This document shows, one piece after another, positions 3,332-43,825 of a stretch of DNA of 64,000 bases. Source of the stretch: Narcine bancroftii (Eukaryota); contig NC_091471.1 in assembly GCF_036971445.1 (NCBI RefSeq), positions 159,650,001-159,714,000 of the forward strand, in the 5' to 3' direction. Both the position numbers and the translations under genes were made by a program. Under the pieces are notes generated by a model. That model was not told where the DNA came from and ran no database searches. It saw only the letters and a list, made by a program, of their open reading frames with translations. Position 1 is the first letter of the stretch, and each line of letters starts with the position of its first letter.

Positions 3332-3916
3332 TGTAATGGAAGATTTAAACCGTGTTTCTTACTTTTGCAGCCTTTGCTTCTGCAAGGCTGAGAACCTGCT
3401 TGTTGCATATGAATTAGTAGACATTATCTAAATTTACACCATGAGGCCCAGAGATGCAGTTGTCTTTTGTTGGTCGCAGGCTGTCAGGAGACCTTGAAGA
3501 TAATTAAATCATTTGTTCAAAGAGATAAGATCTGAAGTAAACAACTTTTGGGTAATATAAGCCATGGTCCCACTGCTGAAGTTTGAGACTCTCCAAGAGG
3601 TGGCAACATCTCTCAGCAAGAAGAACTTCAAGAGTCCAGCTAACGTCCTGGTCGAGGGAGGTGGAGAAGCTGCTACCGGCGCCCCGACAACCTACTACAA
3701 GTGCGCAGTTCAGCAGTTGGGACCAGTCCAGGCGTTGATAAGTATAATTGGGAAGGGCTTGCATATTGTAGTGTGAATTCAGCTTTTGATTTTGTAATAA
3801 AGACTTGTATAAACTGAACTGTTCTCGGTGTGTGTATGTCTATTTTCTTTTGGTAGGTCAAACACTGTGACCAATCTAAAACGAACAAAGTGAGAGGTAC
3901 AAGTTTACCCAAGACA
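3332..3916 (+). repeat. ERV 5' LTR
   Basis: TGT...ACA ends, TATAA near 3556, AATAAA at 3796; direct repeat of 15823-16411. Confidence 0.95.
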
Positions 3917-3918
3917 AT

Positions 3919-3936
3919 TGGCGCTGCGAGCAGGAT
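3919..3936 (+). promoter_or_regulatory. Primer binding site, tRNA-Ser type
   Basis: TGGCGCTGCGAGCAGGAT starts 2 nt after the LTR. It is complementary to the vertebrate tRNA-Ser(CGA) 3' end as I recall it (..ATCCTGCTCACAGCGCCA), with 1 mismatch. Confidence 0.8.
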
Positions 3937-3946
3937 TCGTCTCAAG

Positions 3947-5723
3947 ATGTTTTGCCAAAAGAAAGAGGTGAGCCCTAATTAGTTCTTGATTCCGGGATGG
4001 ACTTCCAAAGACGATGGGTTTGGCATGTTGGCCAATACCCTGTCTTTGTTGGGACCACCCATTAGTTGGGATGAAAAGTTAGACCCATCAAGTGCACCTC
4101 TGGGAGAGCAAGTTGCCACTCTCCTTCAAGAAAGTAAATTTCCTGGTAAAAAGGAGACACTGAGGGACGGTTTTTGGCTGCTGGCCACAGCCTTACGCCA
4201 CTCCGTTCAGCGTGAAGCTGAATTAGTTCAAAGAGAAGTAGAATCTCAGCACAAGAGAGAGCAATTAGAGGAGGTGCTAGAAGACATGAGACAACGCTGT
4301 TCCATGATGAGTGCGATTGTTTGCACCAGTCAGGACCGAGCCAAAGAATGTCCAAACGATCTGACGTAATATTAAACTCCGGCAGCAGCTCTGTGCAGAT
4401 AAAGAAAGGCATGGAGCAGAACCCGATCTACATCATATTCGTGCCATAAGGAATGGCGACGATCCTGATGTAATTGATGAATGGGACGGGAATATCTGGA
4501 ATGATGACCATGGTAATAATGCAGATACTCCTCAGCATGTGCCCAACATAATGCCCTCTCCACCTGCTGTTCACGCCCACCCTGTAAGGCAGCAGACTTC
4601 CCAAACAGACGGAAGGGGTGTTGATGTAAGGGTAGAGATTGAAGGGATAGATACCCCGATCTCCCAAGCGGACCCAGGGGAAGATACCCAAACCCTTGCT
4701 TATGCTCTATGGCCTACCCCCTCTACGGGATGGCCTAGGCCTCGTCCCGTCCACTGGACAAAGGTCCCTGCGGGCCAAAGTGGGAGCAGAGGTCAAGAGC
4801 AGTCAATGATCCGTGACTTCTCTATAAAAGAGCTGGCTGCCATTGGAGATCGATTTAGGCAAAAGGCGGGAGAAACTCTGGCGGCCTGGCTCCTGCGTGT
4901 TTGGGAGCAAGGAGGGGGTAATGTATATTTAACCCCTGAGGAATTTTTGGGATTAGGAACATTGACTACTGATATCCGGGTCACTGCTGAGCTGCGGGGT
5001 AGAAGAAGAAAGATGGATTACTTACTTGCCACTCTAGGGGATGCCCTGCTATGAGTATACCCATCACCAGTAGATTGGGATTTACATTTGCAGAACAATT
5101 GGGGCACCCCAGAGGAGGGCATAGCAGTAATTTGTCAATGGGCCCTGGCCTCTGCCTTGTATGCACGGTGTTTGAGGCTGTGGGTACATGGGGGGAGCCC
5201 TGATGAAGAGATAGTCACGGCCAGAATACATACCAGATTGGTTCGTTCCGCCCAACCCACTGTACAGGGACTGGTTCTGTCTGTAACTAGTCCGCTAATT
5301 GGGCACCCTATGTCTGAGGCAGTGCACGCCTTATCTGGGCTTAGAGAATTAGAGTTGGGAGGTAAAATCCACTCATGTACAACCCAGGTTAAATCAGACA
5401 AGCAGGATGAAAAGAAAGGGGCTGCTGCTAGTAACGGACCGACAAGAAAGGACCTTTTTCTAACCTTGTTAAAGTTAGGCGTACCTAAAAGTAATATTGA
5501 TGGGAAACCTACTGCAGTCCTTTATGCCCTTTATAAGAGGAAGGCAGGGGAACATCTTCCCCAGCTGTTGAGTCCTCCTGGCTCAGCTGTGCCATCTGCT
5601 CCCACCGAGCCAGTATCTCTTGCTCCAGTTATCCGTGATGAGATACAACAAATGGTTAAAAATGCTTTTACGGATAATAGCGGCATGTGGGCCAGGAAGC
5701 CCCCGAACCCTACTAAAGCATGA
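3947..5723 (+). pseudogene. gag: ERV gag (stops and frameshifts)
   Basis: ATG 3947 is in frame with ORF 3986. ERV-L/S-type motifs FRQKAGETLAAWLLRVWEQGG and LGVPKSNIDGKPT; PSAP late motif 5592-5603; no CCHC knuckle seen. Confidence 0.85.
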
Positions 5724-5921
5724 GGGTATGGGCAGGGCCCCCGTGTCTACTCAATTGAGATACGGCGGATACACGGGGATCCATGGCCCTACATACCGTT
5801 AACAGTCCATTGGGGTGGGGGTAATGACCGCCAATATTTGGCCTTGGTCGATACCGGTGCGGAGCACTTGGTGATTCCGGGTAACCCTGACCTCTGGACT
5901 GGATCAACATTTCGAATAGAG
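5724..5921 (+). pseudogene. pro: ERV protease N-terminal half (continues at 13332)
   Basis: In frame after the gag TGA: ..YLALVDTGAEHLVIPG..TFRIE, continuing GMGG..CILGINML after the L1. Confidence 0.88.
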
Positions 5922-6055
5922 AGAGGAGTCACGTGATGGAGTAGTGGCCGGTAGGGGAACTCCAGCCCTCTCCAGAAAAGTTAAAAAAAGATAGAGAAAA
6001 AGCAAAGGCACAAACTTAAAAACCAAAACAAAGTGAAAGTAAAAGTGTGGAGAAA

Positions 6056-7262
6056 ATGGCAGCGAAGAAAGAAAAACCAAAAACGGGAAGAAAAGAAGAA
6101 GGAAAGACGTCGGAAGAAGAAGGTGAAGGCCTTACCTGTCCTAAGAGGCCCGCCGCGGAGAGAGAAGCCCGCTCCCGCAGGTCAGTGGAAGTCCCGGGCT
6201 CGGGACTACAAAAATGGCTCGCAGAGCCGAGTAAAAGTGCGCAATGCGCATGAAAAAAAACCACACTGACGGGAGGGGGGGAACAGCTGCGGAGTCGATC
6301 TCCACAGCTGAGAGAGACACCTGCAGCACAGCAGCAGGTGCAGAACACAGACAACAACGACAACAAGAAAGAAGAGGGTAAAAAGAAAACAAGGAAACAA
6401 CAGATGGTCAATCCAGAGGAAGAAGAAGAACAGAAAGAAGTGGAAGAAGAGAAAAGCAAGACAATGGATGTATCTTTTTTTTAAAGAATATATGGAATCA
6501 GTGAAAGAATGGCAATTACAAGAATTTGATGAGATAAAAAGAAGAATTAAGAATGCAGAAGAAAAAATGAATAAAATGGAAGTGGCCAAATCAGAATTGG
6601 CAAAAAGAGTGGAAAATATGGAAAAACGAGAAACATTTCTAGATATGGAGGTAGAAGACTTAAAAGAGAAATTAGAAGAATCTAATAAAAAAGCTAAAGA
6701 GGCACAGGAGCTGTTAGCTCAGAAGATGGATATAATAGAAAACTATAATAGAAGAAATAATATAAAGATAGTGGGCCTTAAGGAAGATGAAGAAGGCAAG
6801 AATATGAGAGAATTTATAAAAGATTGGATCCCCAGGGTCCTGGGAAGATCAGAATTACAGGAAGAAATGGAAATAGAGAGGGCACATAGAACTTTAGCCC
6901 CGAAACCACAACCGCAGCAAAAACCAAGATCCATTTTAGTAAAATTCTTAAGATATACAACAAGAGAAAATATATTGGAGAAAGCAATGAAGAAAGTAAC
7001 AAAGGACAAAAAGCCACTGGAATATAAAGGTCAAAAAATTTTTTTCTATCCAGACATAAGTTTTGAACTCCTGAAGAAGAAGAAGGAGTTCAATACAGCG
7101 AAAACGATCTTATGGAAAAAAGGATATAAGTTTATGTTAAGGTACCCAGCGGCACTTAAAATAATTATTCTAGGGCAACAAAACAGACTATTCTCGGATC
7201 CAGAGGAAGCAAGAAAATTTGCAGAACAACTACAAAACAAGCAGAGAGAAGAAGACATGTAA
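6056..7262 (+). pseudogene. L1 ORF1 (coiled coil, RRM, CTD; frameshifted near 6255)
   Basis: RRNNIKIVGL, IERAHR, FYPDIS and YPAAL motifs of L1 ORF1p. Confidence 0.88.
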
Positions 7263-7324
7263 TAAGAGTAAAAATGACCACGATCTATATGTATGTGTGT
7301 AAAGGAGTATATGTGTGCGTATAT

Positions 7325-8838
7325 CTACTAAATAGAATAATACCTAGTGTCGCCGAGAATATTCTCCCAGAATCACAGTGCGGCTTTCGCGCAAACAGAG
7401 GAACTACTGACATGGTCTTTGCCCTCAGACAGCTCCAAGAAAAGTGCAGAGAACAAAACAAAGGACTCTACATCACCTTTGTTGACCTCACCAAAGCCTT
7501 CGACACCGTGAGCAGGAAAGGGCTTTGGCAAATACTAGAGCGCATCGGATGTCCCCCAAAGTTCCTCAACATGATTATCCAACTGCACGAAAACCAACAA
7601 GGTCGGGTCAGATACAGCAATGAGCTCTCTGAACCCTTCTCCATTAACAATGGCGTGAAGCAAGGCTGTGTTCTCGCACCAACCCTCTTTTCAATCTTCT
7701 TCAGCATGATGCTGAACCAAGCCATGAAAGACCCCAACAATGAAGACGCTGTTTACATCCGGTACCGCACGGATGGCAGTCTCTTCAATCTGAGGCGCCT
7801 GCAAGCTCACACCAAGACACAAGAGAAAGTTGTCCGTGAACTACTCTTTGCAGACGACGCCGCTTTAGTTGCCCATTCAGAGCCAGCTCTTCAGCGCTTG
7901 ACGTCCTGCTTTGCGGAAACTGCCAAGATGTTTGGCCTGGAAGTCAGCCTGAAGAAAACTGAGGTCCTCCATCAGCCAGCTCCCCACCATGACTACCAGC
8001 CCCCCCACATCACCATCGGGCACACAAAACTCAAAACGGTCAACCAGTTTACCTATCTCGGCTGCACCATTTCATCAGATGCAAGGATCGACAATGAGAT
8101 AGACAACAGACTCGCCAAGGCAAATAGCGCCTTTGGAAGACTACACAAGAGTCTGGAAAAACAACCAACTGAAAAACCTCACAAAGATAAGCGTATACAG
8201 AGCCGTTGTCATACCCACACTCCTGTTCGGCTCCGAATCATGGGTCATCTACCGGCACCACCTACGGCTCCTAGAACGCTTCCACCAGCGTTGTCTCCGC
8301 TCCATCCTCAACATCCATTGGAGCGCTTACACCCCTAACGTTGAAGTACTCGAGATGGCAGAGGTCGACAGCATCGAGTCCACGCTGTTGAAGATCCAGC
8401 TGCGCTGGATGGGTCACGTCTCCAGAATGGAGGACCATCGCCTTCCCAAGATCCTGTTATATGGCGAGCTCTCCACTGGCCACCGTGACAGAGGTGCACC
8501 AAAGAAAAGGTACAAGGACTGCCTAAAGAAATCTCTTGGTGCCTGCCACATTGACCACCGCCAGTGGGCTGATAACGCCTCAAACCGTGCATCTTGGCGC
8601 CTCACAGTTTGGCGGGCAGCAACCTCCTTTGAAGAAGACCGCAGAGCCCACCTCACTGACAAAAGGCAAAGGAGGAAAAACCCAACACCCAACCCCAACC
8701 AACCAATTTTCCCTTGCAACCGCTGCAATCGTGTCTGCCTGTCCCGCATCGGACTTGTCAGCCACAAACGAGCCTGCAGCTGACGTGGACTTTTTACCCC
8801 CTCCATAAATCTTCGTCCGCGAAGCCAAGCCAAAGAAG
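7325..8838 (+). mobile_element. 5'-truncated RTE-clade LINE inside the L1 inter-ORF spacer
   Basis: FVDLTKAFD, GVKQGCVLAP, LFADD and C-terminal CNRC..SHKRAC; GAAGA-like tail running into (TA)n; one frameshift. Confidence 0.9.
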
Positions 8839-9292
8839 ATATATATATATATAGTGTGCATACATGAATGTATCCGCATTTAGAGGAAAATATATAGAGT
8901 ATAGACAAGAATTAATAAGGGAGGGAAATGGAATAGAGGGAATAAGGAGGGAATTAAAAGAGTGACCTCTGTTACATATGAAAATTGAAATCTTTTCTGG
9001 GGGGGGGCTGGATGGGGAGGAGTTACGGTCACTGCAAAATCAGCTGACGTTTGCGAGTGAATTCGCAAATCCAAATGGAGAGGGGAGATGTGGTTGTCCA
9101 ACAAGGGATAAAGGACAACTCAGGAGGGGGAGGGGAGAATGGGGTTAAATAAGTTTTAAATAGGAGAATAAGGAAAATGTTTGATGTTTTAGAAATGTTG
9201 TCTTATAAAGTGTTCAAAACAAGAAAGCAGAAATGGATAAGAAGGAAAGGTGATGATGGAGAAACGGAAAGGGAAGATAAACAAAGTACAAA

Positions 9293-12200
9293 ATGGCTAC
9301 GCTGAACTATATGACTTTAAATATTAACGGAATACATAACCAAATTAAAAGGAAGAAACTGCTAAATTTACTGAAAAAAGAAAAAAATTGATGTAGCATT
9401 TGTGCAAGAAACACATTTAACTGAATTGGAGCACAAGAAATTAAAGAGAGATTGGGTAGGACACGTAACAGCAGCGTCGTATAATTCAAAACCAAGAGGA
9501 GTAGCTAGTAAAAATTAATTTAACATTTAGTAAAAATGTGCCAATTAAAATAGAAGAGGAAATAGTAGATCCAGCAGGGAGATATGTAATGATAAAATGT
9601 CAGATATATTCGGAGTTTTGGAATCTACTCAATGTATATTCACTTAACGAAGAAGATCAAAAGTTTATGCAAGATATTTTTTTGAAGATAGCAGATACGC
9701 AAGGGAACATATTAATAGGAGGGGATTTCAACCTGAATTTGGATTCAAATATGGACAAAACTGGGAAAAAAACTAACAGAAAGAACAAAGTAACCAAATT
9801 TATAATTAAATCGATGGAAGAAATGCAACTTTTGGATATATGGAGGAAACAACACCCAAATGAAAAGGAATATTCATATTACTTGGCTAGACATAAAACA
9901 TACTCAAGGATAGACCTATTTTTGTTATCAGCTCGTATGCAAGATAGAGTAAGAAAAACAGAATATAAAGCTAGAATATTATCGGACCATTCACCCTTAA
10001 TATTGACAATAAAGTTAGAGGACATCCCTCCAAGAATGTATAGATGGAGATTAAACTCCATGTTACTCAAAAGGCAGGATTTTAGAGAATTCATTGAAAG
10101 ACAAATTAAAATGTATTTTGAAATAAATATGGAATCAGTGAAAGATAAGTTTATACTATGGGATGCAATGAAAGCGTTCATTAGAGGGCAAATAATAAGT
10201 TATGTAACCAAGATGAAGAAGGATTATAATCAGGAAACAGAGCAGTTGGAAAGGGAAATAGTAAATATAGAAAAAGAATTAGCAATGAAGGAAGATACAA
10301 GTAAAAGAAGAGAATTGGCAGATAAAAAATAAAATATGAAACACTACAAACATACAAGGTGGAGAAGAATATAATGAAGACAAAACAGAAATATTATGAA
10401 CTAGGGGAAAAAACGCACAAAATTCTAGCATGGCAGCTTAAGACAGAACAAGCTAAGAAAATGGTATTGGCATCAAGGAAAAAAGACAAACAAATCACAT
10501 ATAATCCAAAGGAGATCAAGGAAAACTTTAGAGAATTCTATGAACAATTATACCAAACTGAAAACGAAGGGAAAGAAGGGAAAATAGATGAATTTCTAAC
10601 TAAAATTGAACTACCAAAACTACAAAGAGAGGAACAAAATAAATTAACAGAACCACTTGAAATAGTAGAAATACAAGAGATAATAAAAAAATTACCAGAT
10701 GGATTCCCAATAGAATTCTATAAAACATTTAAAGATTTATTAATTCCTCCCCTCCTGGAAGTAATCAACCAGACTGATAAAACACAAAGTTTACCAGATT
10801 CATGTAAAACAGCAATAATTACAGTAATACTAAAGCAAGGGAAAGATCCACTCGCACCAGTGTCATATAGACCAATATCATTACTTAACACAGATTATAA
10901 GATAATAGCTAAACTATTAGCAAACAGATTAACAGAGTATGTACCGAAAATGGTAAATCTAGACCAAACTGGATTTATTAAAAAAAGACGTACAACAGAC
11001 AATATTTGTAAATTTATTAACTTAATTCATGCAGTAGAAGGGAGTAAAGCGCCAACAGTAGCAGTTGCTTTAGACGCAGAGAAGGCCTTTGACAGAGTAG
11101 AATGGAATAATTTATTCAAAGTATTGCAAAAATTCAGTTTACCAGATAAGTATATTAAATGGATTAAAGCATTATATAAGGGGCCATTGGCGAAAGTGTC
11201 AGTATATGGATATATATGAAAGCAATTTAACTTAAGCAGGTCAACACGGCAGGGATGCCCACTATCACCCTTATTGTTCGCGTTAGCTAAAGAACCACTA
11301 GCAGAATTGATAAGAACAGAAAATAATATAAAAGGGATAAAAATAAAAGACAAGGAAAATAAAATCAGTTTATTTGCGGATGATGTTATAGTATACTTAA
11401 CAGAACCAGAACTATCAATAAAAGAATTATATAAGAAATTGAAGGAATATGGAGAAGTGTCGGGTTACAAGATTAACGGAAATAAAAGTGAAGGAATGCC
11501 TATGAATAATGCGGATTTCTCAAAATTTAAGAAGGAATCACCATTCAGATGGCAAATGCAAGCAATAAGATAGCTAGGTATACAAATAAATAAAAATCTC
11601 GGCCAACTATATAAACTCAATTATTATCCACTAATGAAAAAATTACAGGACGATTTAGAGCATTGGAAAGATTTACCACTAACACTAATAGGAAGGATAA
11701 ACTGTATTAAAATGAACATTTTCCCAAGGATATTATACCTATTTCAGGCATTGCCAATACACTTGACAGAGAAATTCTTCAAGGAGTTAAAGAAAATAAT
11801 AAGGAAATTTTTACGGAAAGGGGGGAAACCGAGGATAGCACTAGATAAATTAACAGAATGGTATAAACAAGGAGGCTTACAACTGCCAAACTTTAAAAAT
11901 TATTATAGAGCCGCACAATTAAGATACCTATCAGATTTTTATCAAACAAGGGAAAAGCCAGATTGGACTAGATTAGAATTAGATAAAATAGGGGAAAAGA
12001 TACCTGAACACATATTATATAAATGGGATGAAAAATTGGTACAGCATAGAAGTTCTCCAGTATTACATCATCTACTCAATATTTGGAAGAAGATTCATGT
12101 AGAAAGGAATAAAACAAATTATCAATTACCAAAACTAATATTGACGCAAAATAAGTTACTCCCTTTTACAATAGATAACCTTTCCTTTAGAGAATGGGAG

Positions 12201-13083
12201 AAAAAAGGGATCAAAAGAATAGAAAATTGTTTTTCAGGAAATAGATTATTATCCTTTGAACAAATGAAAGATAAATACAATATAACTCAAGATACAGTGC
12301 TGGCATATTACCAATTGAGATCCTACTTGAAGGACAAATTAGGAAGCAGTCTGAGTTTACCAGAGGGAACTAACTTTGAATATGTGAGTACAGATACAAT
12401 GACAATCAAAAGATTTATAACAAATATGTATATTAAACTGCAAGAAAAGGAGAATGAGGAAACAAATGGTAAAACTAAACAAAAATGGGAACAAGATTTA
12501 AATATAAAGATAAAAAAGAAAACATGGGAGAAGTTATGTTCTGGAACGATGAGAAATACAATAAATACGAGGTTACGTATGATACAATATAACTGGATAC
12601 ACAGGCTATACATTACACCTCAAAAGTTAAATAAATGGGACCCAACAGTATCTGATAGATGTTTTCGATGTAAAAAAAAATGGGAACAACAATTCATGCA
12701 ATCTGGACATGTGAGAAAGTAGAAAAATTTTGGGAAGATCTAAACCAAATATTAAATAAAATTACAGAAAACAATATACCAAAAAATCCAGAGATCTTCC
12801 TCCTAAGTAACATAAAAAACAAAGAATTTGGAATTGATTTGGATGGTGCACAAAAAAGATTTGTTAAGATAGCTCTAGCCGTAGCAAAAAAATGTATTAT
12901 GTCAACCTGGAAATTGGAAGATAATTTGAAAATACAACAATGGTATATAGAAATGAATAAATGTATTCCATTAGAAAAAAATAACATATAGTTTAAGAAA
13001 TAATATTGAAATATTTGAACAAATATGGGAGCCTTACATGAAACACAATAGAGAAAACCTACCGGGGACATTCACTACCTAAA
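9293..13083 (+). pseudogene. L1 ORF2 (APE endonuclease, RT, C-terminal cysteine-rich region), disrupted
   Basis: MATLNYMTLNING start, GGDFN, SDHSP, DAEKAFD, RQGCPLSP, LFADD, CFRC..HAIWTC; split over several frames. Confidence 0.92.
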
Positions 13084-13331
13084 TTAACGAAAGGAGAAGG
13101 AAATGAAAAAATTGACTCAGTGGAATTTCTTGTTTATTTTTATTGAATGACAACATTGTTTGACTGGTTTAATGTATCCTAGATTTTGTACTTTAAATGG
13201 ACGGGGGGGGGGGGGGGTGGGGGGGGAGAAAATGGCACTGTATATATTTGAAAAGGAAAAAGTATGTATCATGGTTAATGTGGTTTATGGTGTGAAAAAT
13301 AAAAAATTTAAAAAAAACATTTCGAATAGAG

Positions 13332-15409
13332 GGGATGGGAGGAGCGATCACCCTGGCGAAGGAAATAAAAGTCCGCGCCACGGTGGGTGATGGCCCTTCC
13401 CCTATATGGTTACATACCCTGGTGGCTGCCACTGACGAGTGCATCCTGGGTATTAATATGTTGGCCGGTACAGCCCTTAATACTAGCCAAGGGGGATTTG
13501 CATTTGGAATTCGGACTATTACAAAAAGACTAGTGGTGGGTCGGGCTAAGTGGGATCCTGTGATGGTGCCTCCCCCTCACCCCCCCCCCCCCGAAACCAG
13601 TATGCATTCCACAATATCACCTCCCTGGGGGGCAGGAAGAGATTACTGCCACCATCAATGCTTTTCAAGAAGAAGGGGTAGTGAGGCCCGCAACGTCGCC
13701 CTTTAATAGCCCTGTTTGGCCGGTTCAGAAGCCTGATGCCTCCTGGAGAATGACAGTTGACTATCGTTTTTTGAACAAACATGCCCCACCACTTGCTTCG
13801 GCAGTTCTGGACATTGTTACCCTTATTGAAAAGATTGCTACTGGGAAATCAAGAACATGGTATGCTGTCATTGATCTCGCTAATGCCTTCCTCATTATTC
13901 TTATACACGAGGTCTCACAGGATCAGTTCGCCTTTACCTGGAAGGGGCGTCAGTATACCTTCACACGCCTCCCTCAGGGCTATGTACACTCTCCCACTAT
14001 TTGCCATAGCCTAATTGCCCGTGATTTGGAGACGGTGCCAGTATCGCCTTCCCTTTCAATTCACCATTATATTGATGATGTGATGATCCAAGGGGCCACG
14101 GAGGAGATGGTACAGAAAGCAGAACAAGAGGAGTCCTGGTTTACTGATGGTAGCAGCCGGTGGGTGCAAGGAAAGCAGAAGTGGAAGGTGGTGGCTTACC
14201 ATCCCAGGTCAGGAACTCACTTATTGTAGGAGGGGGATGGTGGCTCCAGTCAGTATGCTGAGTTGAAGGCGATCACTTTACCACTCGACCCCCATGATTA
14301 CCCTCTTCGCTTGTTTACTGATTCCTGGGCTTTGGCTAATGGACTAGTGGTATGGATGCCTGATTGGCAAAAGAACGACTGGCTGATCCATGACCGCCCA
14401 GTATGGGGCAAACAGCTGTGGCAGCTGTTGTGGGATGCTTCCCATCATCGTGAGATAACCGTATATCACGTTGATGCCCATACCAATGCAACGATGAACA
14501 TGGCACAACATAATGCAGTAGCAGATCAGCTTGCCACTATCAGCCGCGCCGATACTGTCCCCCTGGATCGACGGGCACATGAACAGAGTGGCCATTTGGG
14601 GGAGAAGGGATCAGCTATGTGGGCACATACACATGCCTCACCCGTCCATCAGGACGATGTCCGCATGGTCGTGCGCACATGCCCAGCATGCCAGCTTGTG
14701 AAGTCCCGCATGGCCGAATAAGACAGGGTGCTCGCTCATCTGCGGTCTGGCAAATTGATTACATAGGCCCTATGCCAGTCTGTATGGGTAAACGTTACAT
14801 CCTTGTTATGGTTGACACCTTTTCAGGCCTGGTTTTTGCTTTTCCCACTAAGACGGCTGACCAAGCTAGCACTATCCAAGGACTAAACCATTTAATTTCT
14901 CGTTATGATGTACCAGAGGAAATTCAGTCTGATAATGGCTCGCACTTCTCCGGGAAGGCAATCTGTGTTTGGGCAGCTGACAACAGTATTTTATGGGTCC
15001 ACCATATTCCTTATTACCCGCAGGCTGCCGGGTTAGTTGAACGAATGAATGGCTTACTGAAGGAACAAATTCGTTTGTTAACACCACTGGGGACCCTGAA
15101 GGGGTGGTGCCATGTGCTGGAGCAGGCAGTCGACAATTTGAATCATAGCCTTTTGAAGGGAGGTACACCTTTCCACCGACTTCTTCACACTTTTGAACTA
15201 CAGCCTATTCCTGAGGAAAACAGTCATTGCCCCCCATTCTCGAGCCAGAGAATGCCGGACAAAAGGGATGGGTGGCACCAACAGGTAATGGCCCTCCTGT
15301 AAAAGTTGAAATAGTGACACCTGCCCAGGGTAACACTCGGTGGGTAGCTATTGAGGGACAGGATAGTTTAGTTTGTTTAAATACTGAATGCTTATGGCAT
15401 CTTGAGTGA
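13332..15409 (+). pseudogene. pol: ERV protease C-half, RT (internally deleted), RNase H and integrase
   Basis: RT YIDD; RNase H WFTDGSS and FTDSWA; integrase HHCC, WQIDYIGP, SDNG, VERMNGLLK; several frameshifts and stops. Confidence 0.92.
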
Positions 15410-15434
15410 CATATGTCAGGCTTCTCTGTTCCAG

Positions 15435-15795
15435 GTCCTCCGTCTTGCACTCCTGCTGATCTGGCTTAACCGCTGCTTTGATGCCAGCAATTGGATTTGT
15501 AATGTAGAGGATGTTCTGAGGGAGTTGCCCGTGGGGGACACGGCCTGATGTATCCATTAATATATCTGATATTGTTAAGCATGTTTCAAAATCTGTTTGT
15601 GAGCTTCAGTATCTGGGTATTGTGGCCCACAAGGATAGTTTGAATCCTCTTTCATGGTTAGCTGGTACATTTGGGGGATTGGGCCACATTATTCTCCGTT
15701 GGTTGCTCACATTATTGCTTATTTTTGTGCTTTATTATAGTTTTAGTTTCTCTTTTTCACTCCTTCTGTACTCAAATGCTTATAAGGTCTCATAA
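15435..15795 (+). pseudogene. env: ERV env remnant (signal-peptide-like start, N-glycosylation site, transmembrane anchor)
   Basis: After acceptor cttctctgttccag it reads VLRLALLLIWLNRCFDAS..; a one-base shift in the G5 run at 15533-15537 gives ..INISD..NPLSWLAGTFGGLGHIILRWLLTLLLIFVLYY.. Confidence 0.65.
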
Positions 15796-15822: not shown

Positions 15823-16411
15823 TGTAATGGAAGATTTAAACCGTGTTTCTTACTTTTGCAGCCTTTGCTTCTGCAAGGCTGAGAACCTGCTTGTTGTATA
15901 TGAATTAGTAGACATTATCTAAATTTACACCATGAAGGCCAGAGATGCAGTTGTCTTTTGTTGGTCGCAGACTGCCAGGAGACCTTGAAGATAATTAAAT
16001 CAATTGTTCCAAGAGATAAGATCTGAAGTAAACAACTTTTGGGTAATATAAGCCATGGTCCCACTGCTGAAGTTTGAGACTCTCCAAGAGGTGGCAACAT
16101 CTCTCAGCAAGAAGAACTTCAAGAGTCCAGCTAACGTCCCGGTCGAGGGAGGTGGAGAAGCTGCTACCGGCGCCCCGACAGCCTACTACAAGTGTGCAGT
16201 CGTTGCCTCGCTTCGGCAGTTGGGACCAGTCCAGACGTTGATAAGTATAATTGGGAAGGGCTTGCATATTGTAGTGTGAATTCAGCTTTCGATTTAGTAA
16301 TAAAGACTTGTATAAACTGAACTGTTCTCGGTGTGTGTGTCTAATTTCTTTCGGTAGCTCAAACACTGACCAATCTAAAACAAAGTGAGAGGTACAAGTT
16401 TACCCAAGACA
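15823..16411 (+). repeat. ERV 3' LTR
   Basis: About 17 substitutions and 4 indels versus the 5' LTR by manual comparison; preceded by purine-rich GAACAAGGGTTGGAA (PPT-like). Confidence 0.95.
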
Positions 16412-26699: not shown

Positions 26700-27048
26700 T
26701 GTTGGTCGCAGACTGCCAGGAGACCTTGAAGATAATTAAATCATTTGTTCCAAGAGATAAGATCTGAAGTAAACAACTTTTGGGTAATATAAGCCATGGT
26801 CCCACTGCTGAAGTTTGAGACTCTCCAAGAGGTGGCAACATCTCTCAGCAAGAAGAACTTCAAGAGTCCAGCTAACGTCCCGGTCGAGGGAGGTGGAGAA
26901 GCTGCTACCGGCGCCCCGACAGCCTACTACAAGTGTGCAGTCGTTGCCTCGCTTCGGCAGTTGGGACCAGTCCAGATGTTGATAAATATAATTGGGAAGG
27001 GCTTGCATATTGTAGTGTGAATTCAGCTTTCGATTTAGTAATAAAGAC
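26700..27048 (+). repeat. Internal fragment of the ERV LTR (third copy)
   Basis: 349-bp match to 15959-16307 with 3 differences; lacks LTR termini and TSD. Confidence 0.93.
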
Positions 27049-30168: not shown

Positions 30169-30796
30169 TAGCTGAATTCCACTCCTTTTCTTTCTTTTGT
30201 TTCACCATTATTGCCCTTTAGTCTTGCACCATCATACATTTTATTTAATCTCCTGTGCCTTCCTTGCTACTGCTTTTTCCACTTTCATTGTATTCTTTGC
30301 ATCCTGATCCCACACCTTTCATCAGAACAAAAAGTTGATCAATCTGGAATGTCATCTCTCCTTTCTCTCTTTCGTTCTGCTTCCTGACCAAATGAGCACT
30401 TCCACGACTATTTTTATTAGAAATGAGCAATATTACTTAGCTGGACTTTAATGCAGGAAATGTTTATCAAATGCTTAAAGATTGATGGATTGGAACTTTA
30501 CAATTGTTCGGTGTGGACTAGAAGGGCCTAATGGCCTGTTTCCGTGCTGTAATTGTTATGTTAGAAATCCAGTAGCTTCAAGATGAATGATACCTTAACA
30601 GATGGCTGTAAAAGGCATCATAAATACACACCACGTGCAAAATAAGAAAAAAACAAGAACTGATGGGTACTTGAAGTGAATTCAAATTCTGTAATGACCT
30701 GAAGTTTTATTACATTTTAGTACAACTTCACATTTCTGGCTGCTGTTTGTGAAATTACATTATACAGCTATGAGTTGCAGCTCGTAATCATGACAA

Positions 30797-33330
30797 GCAG
30801 CGGCCACCAGGACTCGGGCAGGACTCGGGCAGGAGGCGCAGCGGCCACCAGGACTCGGGCAGGACTCGGGCAGGAGGCGCAGCGGCCACCAGGAGACGGG
30901 CAGGACTCGGGCAGGAGGCGCAGCGGCCACCAGGACTCGGGCAGGACTCGGGCAGGAGGCGCAGCGGCCACCAGGACTCGGGCAGGACTCGGGCAGGAGG
31001 CGCAGCGGCCACCAGGACTCGGGCAGGACTCGGGCAGGAGGCGCAGCGGCCACCAGGACTCGGGCAGGACTCGGGCAGGAGGCGCAGCGGCCACCAGGAC
31101 TCGGGCAGGACTCGGGCAGGAGGCGCAGCGGCCACCAGGACTCGGGCAGGACTCGGGCAGGAGGCGCAGCGGCCACCAGGACTCGGGCAGGACTCGGGCA
31201 GGAGGCGCAGCGGCCACCAGGACCCGGGCAGGACTCGGGCAGGAGGCGCAGCGGCCACCAGGACCCGGGCAGGACTCGGGCAGGAGGCGCAGCGGCCACC
31301 AGGACCCGGGCAGGACTCGGGCAGGAGGCGCAGCGGCCACCAGGACCCGGGCAGGACTCGGGCAGGAGGCGCAGCGGCCACCAGGACCCGGGCAGGACTC
31401 GGGCAGGAGGCGCAGCGGCCACCAGGACCCGGGCAGGACTCGGGCAGGAGGCGCAGCGGCCACCAGGACCCGGGCAGGATTCGGGCAGGAGGCGCAGCGG
31501 CCACCAGGACCCGGGCAGGACTCGGGCAGGAGGCGCAGCGGCCCCCAAGACTCGGGCAGGACTCGGGCAGGAGGCGCAGCGGCCCCCAAGACTCGGGCAG
31601 GACTCGGGCAGGAGGCGCAGCGGCCCCCAAGACTCGGGCAGGACTCGGGCAGGAGGCGCAGCGGCCCCCAAGACTCGGGCAGGACTCGGGCAGGAGGCGC
31701 AGCGGCCCCCAAGACTCGGGCAGGACTCGGGCAGGAGGCGCAGCGGCCCCCAAGACTCGGGCAGGACTCGGGCAGGAGGCGCAGCGGCCCCCAAGACTCG
31801 GGCAGGACTCCGGCAGGAGGCGCAGCGGCCCCCAAGACTCGGGCAGGACTCGGGCAGGAGGCGCAGCGGCCCCCAAGACTCGGGCAGGACTCGGGCAGGA
31901 GGCGCAGCGGCCCCCAAGACTCGGGCAGGACTCGGGCAGGAGGCGCAGCGGCCCCCAAGACTCGGGCAGGAGGCGCAGCGGCCCCCAAGACTCGGGCAGG
32001 AGGCGCAGCGGCCCCCAAGACTCGGGCAGGAGGCGCAGCGGCCCCCAAGACTCGGGCAGGAGGCGCAGCGGCCCCCAAGACTCGGGCAGGAGGCGCAGCG
32101 GCCCCCAAGACTCGGGCAGGAGGCGCAGCGGCCCCCAAGACTCGGGCAGGAGGCGCAGCGGCCCCCAAGACTCGGGCAGGAGGCGCAGCGGCCCCCAAGA
32201 CTCGGGCAGGAGGCGCAGCGGCCCCCAAGACTCGGGCAGGAGGCGCAGCGGCCCCCAAGACTCGGGCAGGAGGCGCAGCGGCCCCCAAGACTCGGGCAGG
32301 AGGCGCAGCGGCCCCCAAGACTCGGGCAGGAGGCGCAGCGGCCCCCAAGACTCGGGCAGGAGGCGCAGCGGCCCCCAAGACTCGGGCAGGAGGCGCAGCG
32401 GCCCCCAAGACTCGGGCAGGAGGCGCAGCGGCCCCCAAGACTCGGGCAGGAGGCGCAGCGGCCCCCAAGACTCGGGCAGGAGGCGCAGCGGCCCCCAAGA
32501 CTCGGGCAGGAGGCGCAGCGGCCCCCAAGACTCGGGCAGGAGGCGCAGCGGCCCCCAAGACTCGGGCAGGAGGCGCAGCGGCCCCCAAGACTCGGGCAGG
32601 AGGCGCAGCGGCCCCCAAGACTCGGGCAGGAGGCGCAGCGGCCCCCAAGACTCGGGCAGGAGGCGCAGCGGCCCCCAAGACTCGGGCAGGAGGCGCAGCG
32701 GCCCCCAAGACTCGGGCAGGAGGCGCAGCGGCCCCCAAGACTCGGGCAGGAGGCGCAGCGGCCCCCAAGACTCGGGCAGGAGGCGCAGCGGCCCCCAAGA
32801 CTCGGGCAGGAGGCGCAGCGGCCCCCAAGACTCGGGCAGGAGGCGCAGCGGCCCCCAAGACTCGGGCAGGAGGCGCAGCGGCCCCCAAGACTCGGGCAGG
32901 AGGCGCAGCGGCCCCCAAGACTCGGGCAGGAGGCGCAGCGGCCCCCAAGACTCGGGCAGGAGGCGCAGCGGCCCCCAAGACTCGGGCAGGAGGCGCAGCG
33001 GCCCCCAAGACTCGGGCAGGAGGCGCAGCGGCCCCCAAGACTCGGGCAGGAGGCGCAGCGGCCCCCAAGACTCGGGCAGGAGGCGCAGCGGCCACCAAGA
33101 CTCGGGTAGGAGGCGCAGCGGCCACCAAGACTCGGGCAGGAGGCGCAGCGGCCACCAAGACTCAGACAGGAGGCGCAGCTGCCACCAAGACTCAGACAGG
33201 AGGCGCAGCTGCCACCAAGACTCAGACAGGAGGCGCAGCTGCCACCAAGACTCAGACAGGAGGCGCAGCTGCCACCAAGACTCAGACAGGAGGCGCAGCT
33301 GCCACCAAGACTCAGACAGGAGACGCAGCT
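30797..33330. repeat. GC-rich minisatellite, 41-bp and 30-bp units
   Basis: About 28 units of 41 bp, then about 46 units of 30 bp (GCCCCCAAGACTCGGGCAGGAGGCGCAGCG). The 41-mer is the 30-mer plus an 11-bp internal duplication. Confidence 0.98.
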
Positions 33331-33446
33331 CTTTTGGTTTAATTATTGTAAATTGGGTCAATGCTTGGCAACCAAGATACTGACAAATTCAGCATCATAA
33401 AGAGAATTATCATCCAATTAATTTATTAACTGACAATGGGATATTA

Positions 33447-40980: not shown

Positions 40981-42284
40981 TCCAAAGTGGCTGTCTCTTT
41001 CTATACTGCAAAACTTCATTACTGTTAACTTCATTTTCAAATCCTCCCATGGTATTACCCACTCCTATCCCACTCATCTTCCTGCTCTGCAAGTTGGCAA
41101 GATTTTCATTTGTTCAGAACAAATCTGTGCATTTCCACCTTTAACCTCAGCACAACCTCAGACACACCATCAGCATCCAAGATCCCAAGCAGTGGAATTA
41201 TTTTTTCCTACCAAATCTCATCTTACGACTTAATTTTTTTCATTTTTTTTAATATAAACGGCCTTATAAAACCTACACTGATTAATCCTTCTTCATTGAT
41301 CATAAGCATTCATTTCCTTATGAATATTCTTTGAAAGCTTTGCTACTTCAAAAATGAACAAAATAGATACAAACAAGGCAACTTTCTCCATGATTTATTG
41401 CTCAACACCTTCTAAAGCTCAGAGTTTAAAATGATAATTACTGGAAAGCTGAAGAACTCTCATGAAAGAAACTTAATACAAGACAATAACTTTCATATTG
41501 TCTCAGTTTGAACAACCTTCAAGGGATCTCTAGAGAAAGTTATAAAAGACACCCCAAAGCCTTAGAACCACAAACCGCTGGTCCTGCTTTTTATATAAAA
41601 AAAAGGATTATAAACTTGTTATGGTACATGAGCAATGAGTACCCAAGAAATTTCTGATCTTTTACATAGTGCTTAAGACCACATGTACTCTACAAGATAT
41701 TTGAAGACACAAGGCATCTTTAAAGATGTCATAAAACTTTCAAACAGAAAATGTTAATGCCAATAATCCAAAGGAGCAAATGAAGAGAAGAAAACACAAA
41801 GGTTGTATATGTTCAAGTAAAACAAATTGAATTCTTGAGCTGAGAAAGCCTAGTGTAGCACTGAATATTCTTCAACTTTGGGGATATTATCCACACTAAA
41901 AAAATTGTGTATATCACACTGAGGAACAGGCTTTTTCCACAGCAGCTGAGCAATCTATAATACACAAAATGTATGCAACTTACAAGTAAAATTTGTCATG
42001 ACTGTTGAAAAAGATGGATGTAATGATGCTTTAAAGTTAGAATAAAATGCTTCCAATTTTCTTTGCACCACCAGGTTTATGTGATTTGTCTCCTCCCCAC
42101 CACAGTATTTTACATTTATTACATGATAAATTATCTGATTATCGAATACTGTTCCAAAGCTTTAGTTCATGCAAGTGGATAATGCCTGCATAAATACTTA
42201 TTTAACACAGTTGCCTTGCCAAGCAGCCAAATCCATTGACAGATTTTTAATGGAAATTGGAAATACATTGCAGAATATTTCACT

Positions 42285-42479
42285 TACTGAAACAGTACTA
42301 CTGAAACAGTACTACTGAAACAGTACTACTGAAACAGTACTACTGAAACAGTACTACTGAAACAGTACTACTGAAACAGTACTACTGAAACAGTACTACT
42401 GAAACAGTACTACTGAAACAGTACTACTGAAACAGTACTACTGAAACAGTACTACTGAAACAGTACTACTGAAACAGTA
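42285..42479. repeat. 14-bp tandem repeat (TACTGAAACAGTAC) x~14
   Basis: Perfect array read directly. Confidence 0.97.
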
Positions 42480-43825
42480 GTTTTGTACAATATTCTTTTT
42501 TTTAAAGAATCTGTAGCGTCTTCATACTTGTATACATATAAATAAAGAGGAGAAAACCATTGGATCAGTTAGAATGAATTAATCAGTAATCCTATATTAA
42601 ACAAATTGACTCTTGTTAGTCATTCATAAGAATATATGTCTAATAAAATGACCAGAATTATAATCACAGATAAAAAAGTTAGTTGCAGTAAATTTCATTT
42701 GTATTACAAATTGAAGAGCTGGAGATGCAGGAATCTGAAATGGCAACAGAAAATGTTCAAAACGCTCAGCAGCATCTGTGGTAAGAGAAACAGCTAACAT
42801 CTGAGGATGAAGATCAATCTGACAAAAAGACACTCTCTTGAAAACTCATTTTCCTTTCCACAGATGATGTCTGACTTACTTAATGCTTCCATCCTTTTTA
42901 AATTTTTTTTTATATTGTTGGCAGGTTGGAAAGATAATATAGTTTTAGTTCAATTATTGGAAACATAATCTTTGTATTTTATCAGTTTCCACAAAATTCA
43001 TTAGACTAGGGTCTGGACCTCTGTCATAAATTTACTACAACTATATTCTTATTCTAATTATTTGACTATCATTGTTAATATATAATTCCTGAATTTTACA
43101 CGAACTATGCAATCTCACTGCACTTAATCATATTGTTTCATGTGCAGTACGATGTATAGGATTAGTATGGCACTGGTCAAGTGGGAGGGATATGGAAGAA
43201 TTGGGAAACAAGACATACGTGGGCCAAAGAAAGAGTTAAATATTTTATTTTGTTGAACATAAATTAGACCACAAGAGATAGGAACAGAATTAAGCCATTC
43301 AGCCTATTGAGTCTGCTCCACCATTCGAATCATGGCTGACATACTGGTATGAAATTAGTATTAAAGGGTTGCCCAAATAAAATTAATATTTGTGTAACTA
43401 ATTACAATGAGTCTCTGCATCAAAGCATCAGAGCAAAGTAATGCTTCTTGTATTAAAAAAATTAATACAAGCAGAAATAGCCTACTCAGAAACAAGATTA
43501 TTCCAAAATTCTAAAAACCCAAGAATGCTAATAGACCAATTTGAGAACATAATGCATTTAGACTATTTTTGTAAGGTGACAAATCTTCACATTTTAATTT
43601 TTAAATCTTTCATGCTACTGTTGATTAAACCAGACAGCAATAAGTAAATTTTATTGCATTTGAACCTCCTGCCAGTTTTGTTACATATGGTTTAATTTTA
43701 AAAGAGAAAACGATTCATAATTTCATTTTAGCACTAAACTAGAAGTACCAATTGTTAAATTGAACCATTAAGTACCCAAGGTTATGAACATCATATCAAT
43801 TTAACAATCTTCATTTTGGACTTAC

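Follow-up and report, generated by a model that had tools for sequence, protein, structure and literature searches.

The 64,000-nt stretch of Narcine bancroftii DNA studied here (NC_091471.1, positions 159,650,001-159,714,000; hereafter the window, to whose positions all coordinates without a prefix refer) carries one provirus of an endogenous retrovirus (ERV) family, with long terminal repeats (LTRs) at 3332-3916 and 15823-16411 and the target-site duplication CTACC flanking both sides. The family numbers at least 1,500 copies (1,511-1,584 candidates for its two ends, of which the best 40 were scored and 30 fetched per end) and very probably makes its envelope protein (Env) from one spliced mRNA that joins gag codon 7 in frame to an acceptor at the head of env. 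The provirus in the window is laid out as follows:

3332..3916, + strand: 5' LTR, with 17 mismatches to the 3' LTR over 577 aligned bases
3919..3936, + strand: primer-binding site (PBS), a sequence upstream of the donor
3947..3967, + strand: start of gag, from the ATG through codon 7 (basic), predicted to act as n-region in the signal peptide of Env
3968..3973, + strand: splice donor GTGAGC, phase 0, GT at 3968
3947..5723, + strand: gag, broken by stops and a frameshift
5922..13316, + strand: nested insertions of long interspersed nuclear elements (LINEs) in the protease region, target duplicated
13317..15409, + strand: pol remnant with a deletion of ~845 nt at 14117/18 and the pol stop TGA at 15407-09
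15411..15413, + strand: env-frame codon 24 nt above the acceptor, ATA in the window
15420..15434, + strand: env splice acceptor (pyrimidine tract and CAG), AG at 15433-34
15435..15795, + strand: env remnant with the h- and c-regions of the signal peptide, the start of the surface subunit, a ~1.1-kb deletion at 15544/45 and an out-of-frame transmembrane (TM) end
15823..16411, + strand: 3' LTR

This provirus is dead: its gag contains stops, a 7.4-kb LINE insert separates its parts, and both reverse transcriptase (RT) and env have suffered deletions, so that it is unable to make Env. A preliminary description of this DNA had proposed that Env borrows the gag ATG through a splice, which is supported for the family but not for the window copy itself. 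The underlying positions are as it gave them, namely the gag start at ATG 3947, seven codons ending in GAG/GTGAGC with the GT at 3968 in phase 0, and an env-like frame that lacks an ATG of its own. In that frame a TAA at 15378-80 is followed by 18 open codons with no in-frame ATG above the acceptor. By contrast, 15435-15795 is not the single env frame of ~120 codons that had been described, since only 37 codons are open and the two ends of env lie out of frame around the ~1.1-kb deletion. We accordingly rejected this frame as a whole env; sibling copies carry the extra ~1.1 kb.

Within the window, the frame that starts at the gag ATG closes after 11 codons. Sibling copies are open through that site, three of them running for 591-600 aa, so ATG 3947 is the true gag start, the stop in the window is damage to this copy, and a separate upstream open reading frame (ORF) at this ATG can be rejected. 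Counted copy by copy (conservation is given here as such counts, not from a family consensus), a donor GT follows gag codon 7 in 30/30 of the best copies of the gag end, 26 of them with the exact 9-mer. Of the 13 env-bearing proviruses retrieved in full, 12 possess a PBS, and each of these 12 also shows the gag ATG and the codon-7 donor. As the PBS lies above this donor, the spliced RNA keeps it.

The other partner of the proposed splice was followed in full-env siblings that carry the missing 1.1 kb, which were found by a search with PF00429 and whose env matches that family. The acceptor is present in 29 of 30 distinct env loci, and in 23 of the loci it is followed by an open env of 495-502 codons; its CAG is also kept in 28/30 window-type copies. 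The open frames extend only 18 codons upstream of the acceptor, and the first methionine below it is residue 160-161 in all 17 open env copies of one set. The preliminary description had held that intact members should lack an in-frame env ATG above the acceptor, as is the case in 22/23 open full env copies, whereas one does have it. Two NCBI env models of the family (P0057 and P0058) start at internal methionines and are devoid of a signal peptide. A second env family of the genome, unrelated to this one, served as a control; its env has its own methionine at the head of the frame in 6/7 loci.

The most direct evidence for the pairing of these two sites comes from two family copies in which they are already joined. 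A 19-letter pattern spanning the predicted junction gave four matches (two for the reversed control), two of them due to chance (L112 and L113) and two in copies of the family (L157 and L158). In both copies the LTR, PBS and gag codons 1-7 are followed without a gap by the env exon, beginning with its first base, so that the join predicted between the equivalents of 3967 and 15435 is found base for base in genomic DNA. L157 (G000:C17) carries env as its only gene between two LTRs, which have complete U3 and are 5.9% apart; its target duplication matches at 4/5 positions, and its full-length env is broken. L158 (G000:C5) is a second integration that ends after about 55 env bases; the LTRs of the two elements are 9.2% apart. 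When the L157 junction was used for a DNA search, only these two copies spanned the join among the best 40 of 1,582 candidates. Reciprocal patterns point to the same pair: the gag exon followed by anything other than the normal intron start matched only L157, L158 and a point mutant (L200), and the env exon preceded by a base other than C at -3 had nine matches, L157 and eight point mutants. No other partner site for the donor or the acceptor appeared among these matches, the acceptor pattern being blind to donor exons that end in CAG. Because two genomic copies are joined exactly at both sites, the donor-acceptor pair stands above chance. L157 is likely the fossil of a spliced mRNA, a provirus built by the viral machinery, and we infer that the joined form of L157 and L158 goes back to spliced RNA that was reverse-transcribed and integrated. 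The 3' LTR of L157 opens with a second copy of 45 nt from the 5' end of env (L157rc:4472-4516), perhaps the product of a template switch during reverse transcription.

As it stands, L157 begins with MFRRKKE/VLCLALLLIWL, in which a basic start is followed by a hydrophobic stretch with a hydropathy peak of 3.6 (read by eye), and small residues precede a W-x-C motif that is common to stingray env. Such a joined N-terminus would probably act as a cleaved signal peptide. In the mechanism that we propose, a single spliced mRNA would join gag codon 7 in frame to the env acceptor, ribosomes would start Env at the gag ATG, and the Env signal peptide would take its n-region from the basic first residues of Gag.

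Host gene annotation also bears on the acceptor. Exons of the genome in which these copies lie (G000) match NCBI proteins labelled Narcine bancroftii at 96-98%. In the NCBI models P0060 and P0062, exons of an NKAIN-like gene and of HSPBAP1 are joined in phase 0 to the same env acceptor; the HSPBAP1 exon ends at a GT donor (GAG/GTAAT), and a family copy of the same orientation follows some 23 kb downstream. These isoforms are gene models of the NCBI annotation. RNA could be consulted in the form of assembled contigs, not reads, from four runs of one study, their RNA nature being presumed, and such contigs drop rare forms. The donor-to-acceptor joint is not among the 14 listed RNA joints aligned to the full-length copy at 88% likeness, and at 82% likeness to the L157 junction none of the best 32 of 964 contig pieces bridges it with 31 letters on each side. 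Among the pieces listed, the loose contig ends at this junction are unspliced continuations at both sites. These look-ups count neither for nor against the splice.

The same HSPBAP1 and NKAIN-like isoforms (G000:C9:256192299-256215865 and a C15 locus) end in a mini-env exon and represent predicted host-Env fusion proteins. Mini-env genes characterize a very young subfamily (L201-L242, for example G000:C5:53137598-53137999), in which 101 copies scored 97-99% identity and LTR pairs are 98.4-100% identical. It bears in-frame deletions in gag, pol and env, and 29/30 fetched copies have an open mini-env of 132 codons that consists of the signal region, a short ectodomain and a TM anchor. This openness possibly means simply that the subfamily is too young for decay. 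The codon-7 donor is present in 12/12 mini-env proviruses.

Several observations weigh against the gag-started Env. The splice motifs alone are unremarkable. By a crude consensus count in a full-length copy, the donor, previously described as good, does match the consensus at 7/9 positions and is one of the best 12 of 404 GTs. The acceptor, previously described as strong, has its AG at 15433-34 in phase 0 with the hydrophobic frame, but shows pyrimidines at only 9/14 positions (10 in the window) and lies outside the top 21 of 195 YAGs. The fossil copies L157 and L158 are sisters in the tree with modest support (87/92), and on that ground the two integrations possibly go back to one splice event. 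Moreover, the donor and acceptor sites both contain AGGT, so a template-switch deletion would yield an identical join. An upstream env ATG does occur in some lineages. At codon -24, one base past the pol stop, the young open-env lineage has TTG, the window lineage ATA and two others ATG; the copies with ATG comprise 1/23 with an open full env, several with a broken one and 30/30 fetched from the young mini-env subfamily. In a tree of 37 chosen loci, copies with ATG at -24 both adjoin the TTG clade (100/100) and form part of a separate clade (100/99), the backbone being unresolved. Finally, conservation, which the preliminary description had proposed to check, holds for donor and acceptor within the family, but in the stingray relative the donor appears to be missing. 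At the E-V-S of the ray family, stingray Gag models have E-A-T (11/11 models covering that start), which leaves no GT donor possible at that codon, and one stingray env model begins with its own methionine; the gag-env splice may therefore be limited to the lineage of the present family. This comparison is one of protein models without DNA, in which the Gag and env models may come from different proviruses, and cross-species conservation rests on these stingray models, since searches for Gag relatives outside rays gave almost nothing usable.

These points bear on three other explanations. Env might have its own start just past the pol stop, as in XtERV-S, at ATG or at a near-cognate TTG or ATA, reached through an undetected acceptor inside integrase, with the gag-joined form as a minor or second product. 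The -24 ATG of L103/L186, L067, L188, L194, L195 and all 30 mini-env copies agrees with this, as do the stingray env model with its own methionine and the 18 codons above the acceptor that are open in most copies, although an overlap of 10 of these 18 with pol may account for some of that conservation. The youngest copies, in which three genes are open and the LTRs are 98.5-99.9% identical, nevertheless have TTG at -24, and neither the genomic joins nor the 14 RNA joints listed show an upstream acceptor. The known acceptor lies below -24, so an ATG at that codon is intronic, and the host-gene models take this downstream acceptor even in the ATG lineage. We thus regard an own start as unlikely. 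A still weaker case can be made for L157 and L158 as ordinary internal deletions generated by template switching at the 4-nt AGGT microhomology, with the splice motifs incidental. Internal deletions are common in the family, both sites contain the tetramer, and the two copies may have one origin. Against this, the full-length copy contains 93,883 position pairs that share a 4-mer, so that even if every one of ~1,500 copies had undergone a deletion independently, the chance of hitting this pair, which had been named beforehand, would be about 1.6%; besides, deletion leaves the open-env copies without a start codon and the host-gene use of the acceptor unexplained. We consider this origin of the two copies very improbable.

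A functional small membrane protein made by the splice from the window frame 15435-15795 would have a parallel in the sister subfamily, whose open mini-env of 132 codons encodes a signal region and a TM anchor. Downstream of the acceptor, however, the frame ends after 9-44 codons in 30/30 window-type copies, in which the env deletion is out of frame, and the window copy is full of stops, LINE inserts and deletions. Its sequence refutes such a function for the window copy, and we give the idea practically no credence. An Env started at the gag ATG is, in our view, the best account of the family.

Other features of the window and of the family LTRs can be added to this description. The LINE insert at 5922-13316 is an L1/Tx1-like element inside the protease region, itself interrupted at ~7305-8840 by an RTE-like LINE (names from the look of their ORFs). 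A partial third LTR of the same ERV family lies at 26700-27048 (93% identity over 337 query bases), and tandem arrays with units of 41, 30 and 14 nt occupy ~30670-33400 and 42270-42480. We found no tRNA genes within the window. The PBS is presumably of the tRNA-Ser type. At least three PBS variants exist within this one family (L031-L060, L091-L103 and L157), which probably reflect different tRNA-Ser isoacceptors used as primers. In the R/U5 part of the LTR, three contigs of run X2 skip 111 nt (L094:2015-2125, corresponding to ~3745-3856 in the window) that have GT..AG ends and a strong pyrimidine tract, and the segment is present in all 239 genomic LTR matches (counted without de-duplication). 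It is likely a small LTR intron whose removal takes out the AATAAA signal and an upstream ATG.

Concerning the affiliation of the family, gag and pro-pol lie in one frame with a single TGA between them, Gag has neither a Cys-His box nor a glycine at position 2, and Env is of the gamma type, with CXXC, a furin site, an immunosuppressive domain (ISD) and CX6CC all present. The integrase is closest to that of foamy virus among solved structures (96 bits versus at most 60 for the others), and the nearest outside pol is that of stingray. In a quick RT tree, which included no named reference ERV, the family is sister to stingray P0001 (86) within a clade of support 95 that also contains P0024 of X. 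tropicalis; the other env family of the genome sits on a long branch (33% identity versus 42-65%). This second, unrelated env-bearing family (L104-L110) has a Gag with Gly2, a 569-codon env with its own methionine and many open frames. Judged from sequence, the features of the ray family itself fit a class III ERV-S-like element. Membership of the alpharetroviruses was rejected, as the class II RT and integrase and the Gag Cys-His boxes that define them are not found here. In the pol of L094 (1043 aa) Pfam detected no dUTPase family, which agrees with the description of ERV-S in PMC8278194.

A gag-started Env in this family explains why automated annotation has produced signal-less, truncated Env proteins for it, and suggests that "start-less" env genes of other ERVs of fish-grade vertebrates may be intact. 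It also matters beyond the virus, as the env acceptor of a family that was recently active (some copies have identical LTRs) appears in annotated host-gene isoforms. Proviruses made from spliced RNA, such as L157, can document directly the splice sites of retroviruses that are extinct or unculturable. The strategy of alpharetroviruses and of some insect errantiviruses extends in this way to a class III vertebrate retrovirus and has therefore likely evolved repeatedly. Full-text literature searches, with most subscription papers and Repbase-type entries outside their reach, turned up no class III ERV whose env starts at the gag ATG, and the portion consulted of a survey of anamniote Env (10.1101/2021.11.23.469661) contains nothing on splice sites.

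Snakehead retrovirus reportedly also places the Env start on a 5' exon above the donor, at a separate ATG upstream of gag and not at the gag ATG. The avian sarcoma and leukosis viruses (ASLV) provide the closest parallel: their Env has its first six residues in common with Gag (PMC8220723). The donor lies a few codons into gag and the join is in frame in both, with six shared residues in ASLV and seven in the ray family. In ASLV the six head a signal region of 62 residues (6 + 56; PMC8220723), whereas here the seven would make up the whole n-region of a predicted signal peptide of ~24 residues, and ASLV is of class II, with RT and integrase far from those of the ray family. The likeness is convergence, not kinship. 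ASLV, cited in the preliminary description, is a valid precedent but not the only one, since the idefix subclade of Drosophila errantiviruses also splices the main env exon from within gag; these belong to an insect Ty3/gypsy lineage with a baculovirus-type F envelope, and other subclades rely instead on a short exon ahead of gag or on an AU dinucleotide (PMC12992720). A precedent for L157 and L158 exists in endogenous mouse mammary tumor virus (MMTV), where proviruses that lack exactly one viral intron were read as integrated cDNA of spliced mRNA, with the difference that the rem intron inside env was lost there and the whole gag-pol intron here (PMC11998498).

Among class III elements, XtERV-S of Xenopus tropicalis resembles the ray family in its combination of class III pol and gamma-type env, its in-frame gag-TGA-pol, the absence of a Cys-His box and of a myristoylation glycine, the overlap of the env frame with the end of pol, and a PBS for tRNA-Ser, the type that we assume for the ray ERV (PMC8278194). 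It differs in having a dUTPase in pol, not found by Pfam in the ray family, and an env start of its own at the pol stop, with a predicted LTR donor that excludes the PBS, whereas the donor of the ray ERV lies in gag, below the PBS (PMC8278194). In OVEX1 the donor is placed above gag (PMC2717909). As regards the mechanism, the ray family has very likely arrived by convergence at a known strategy, in a virus class new to it, and may have been caught during the transition. One history, which we offer only tentatively and give somewhat under even chances, is that an own Env start after pol, as in the XtERV-S layout and still ATG in some lineages, was left intronic when codon 8 of gag (Ala in the stingray relative, Val in the ray) acquired a donor, and then decayed twice, to TTG and to ATA, while the Gag N-terminus became the n-region; this would make it an independent ASLV-type origin within class III, with intermediates and a fossil mRNA in one genome.

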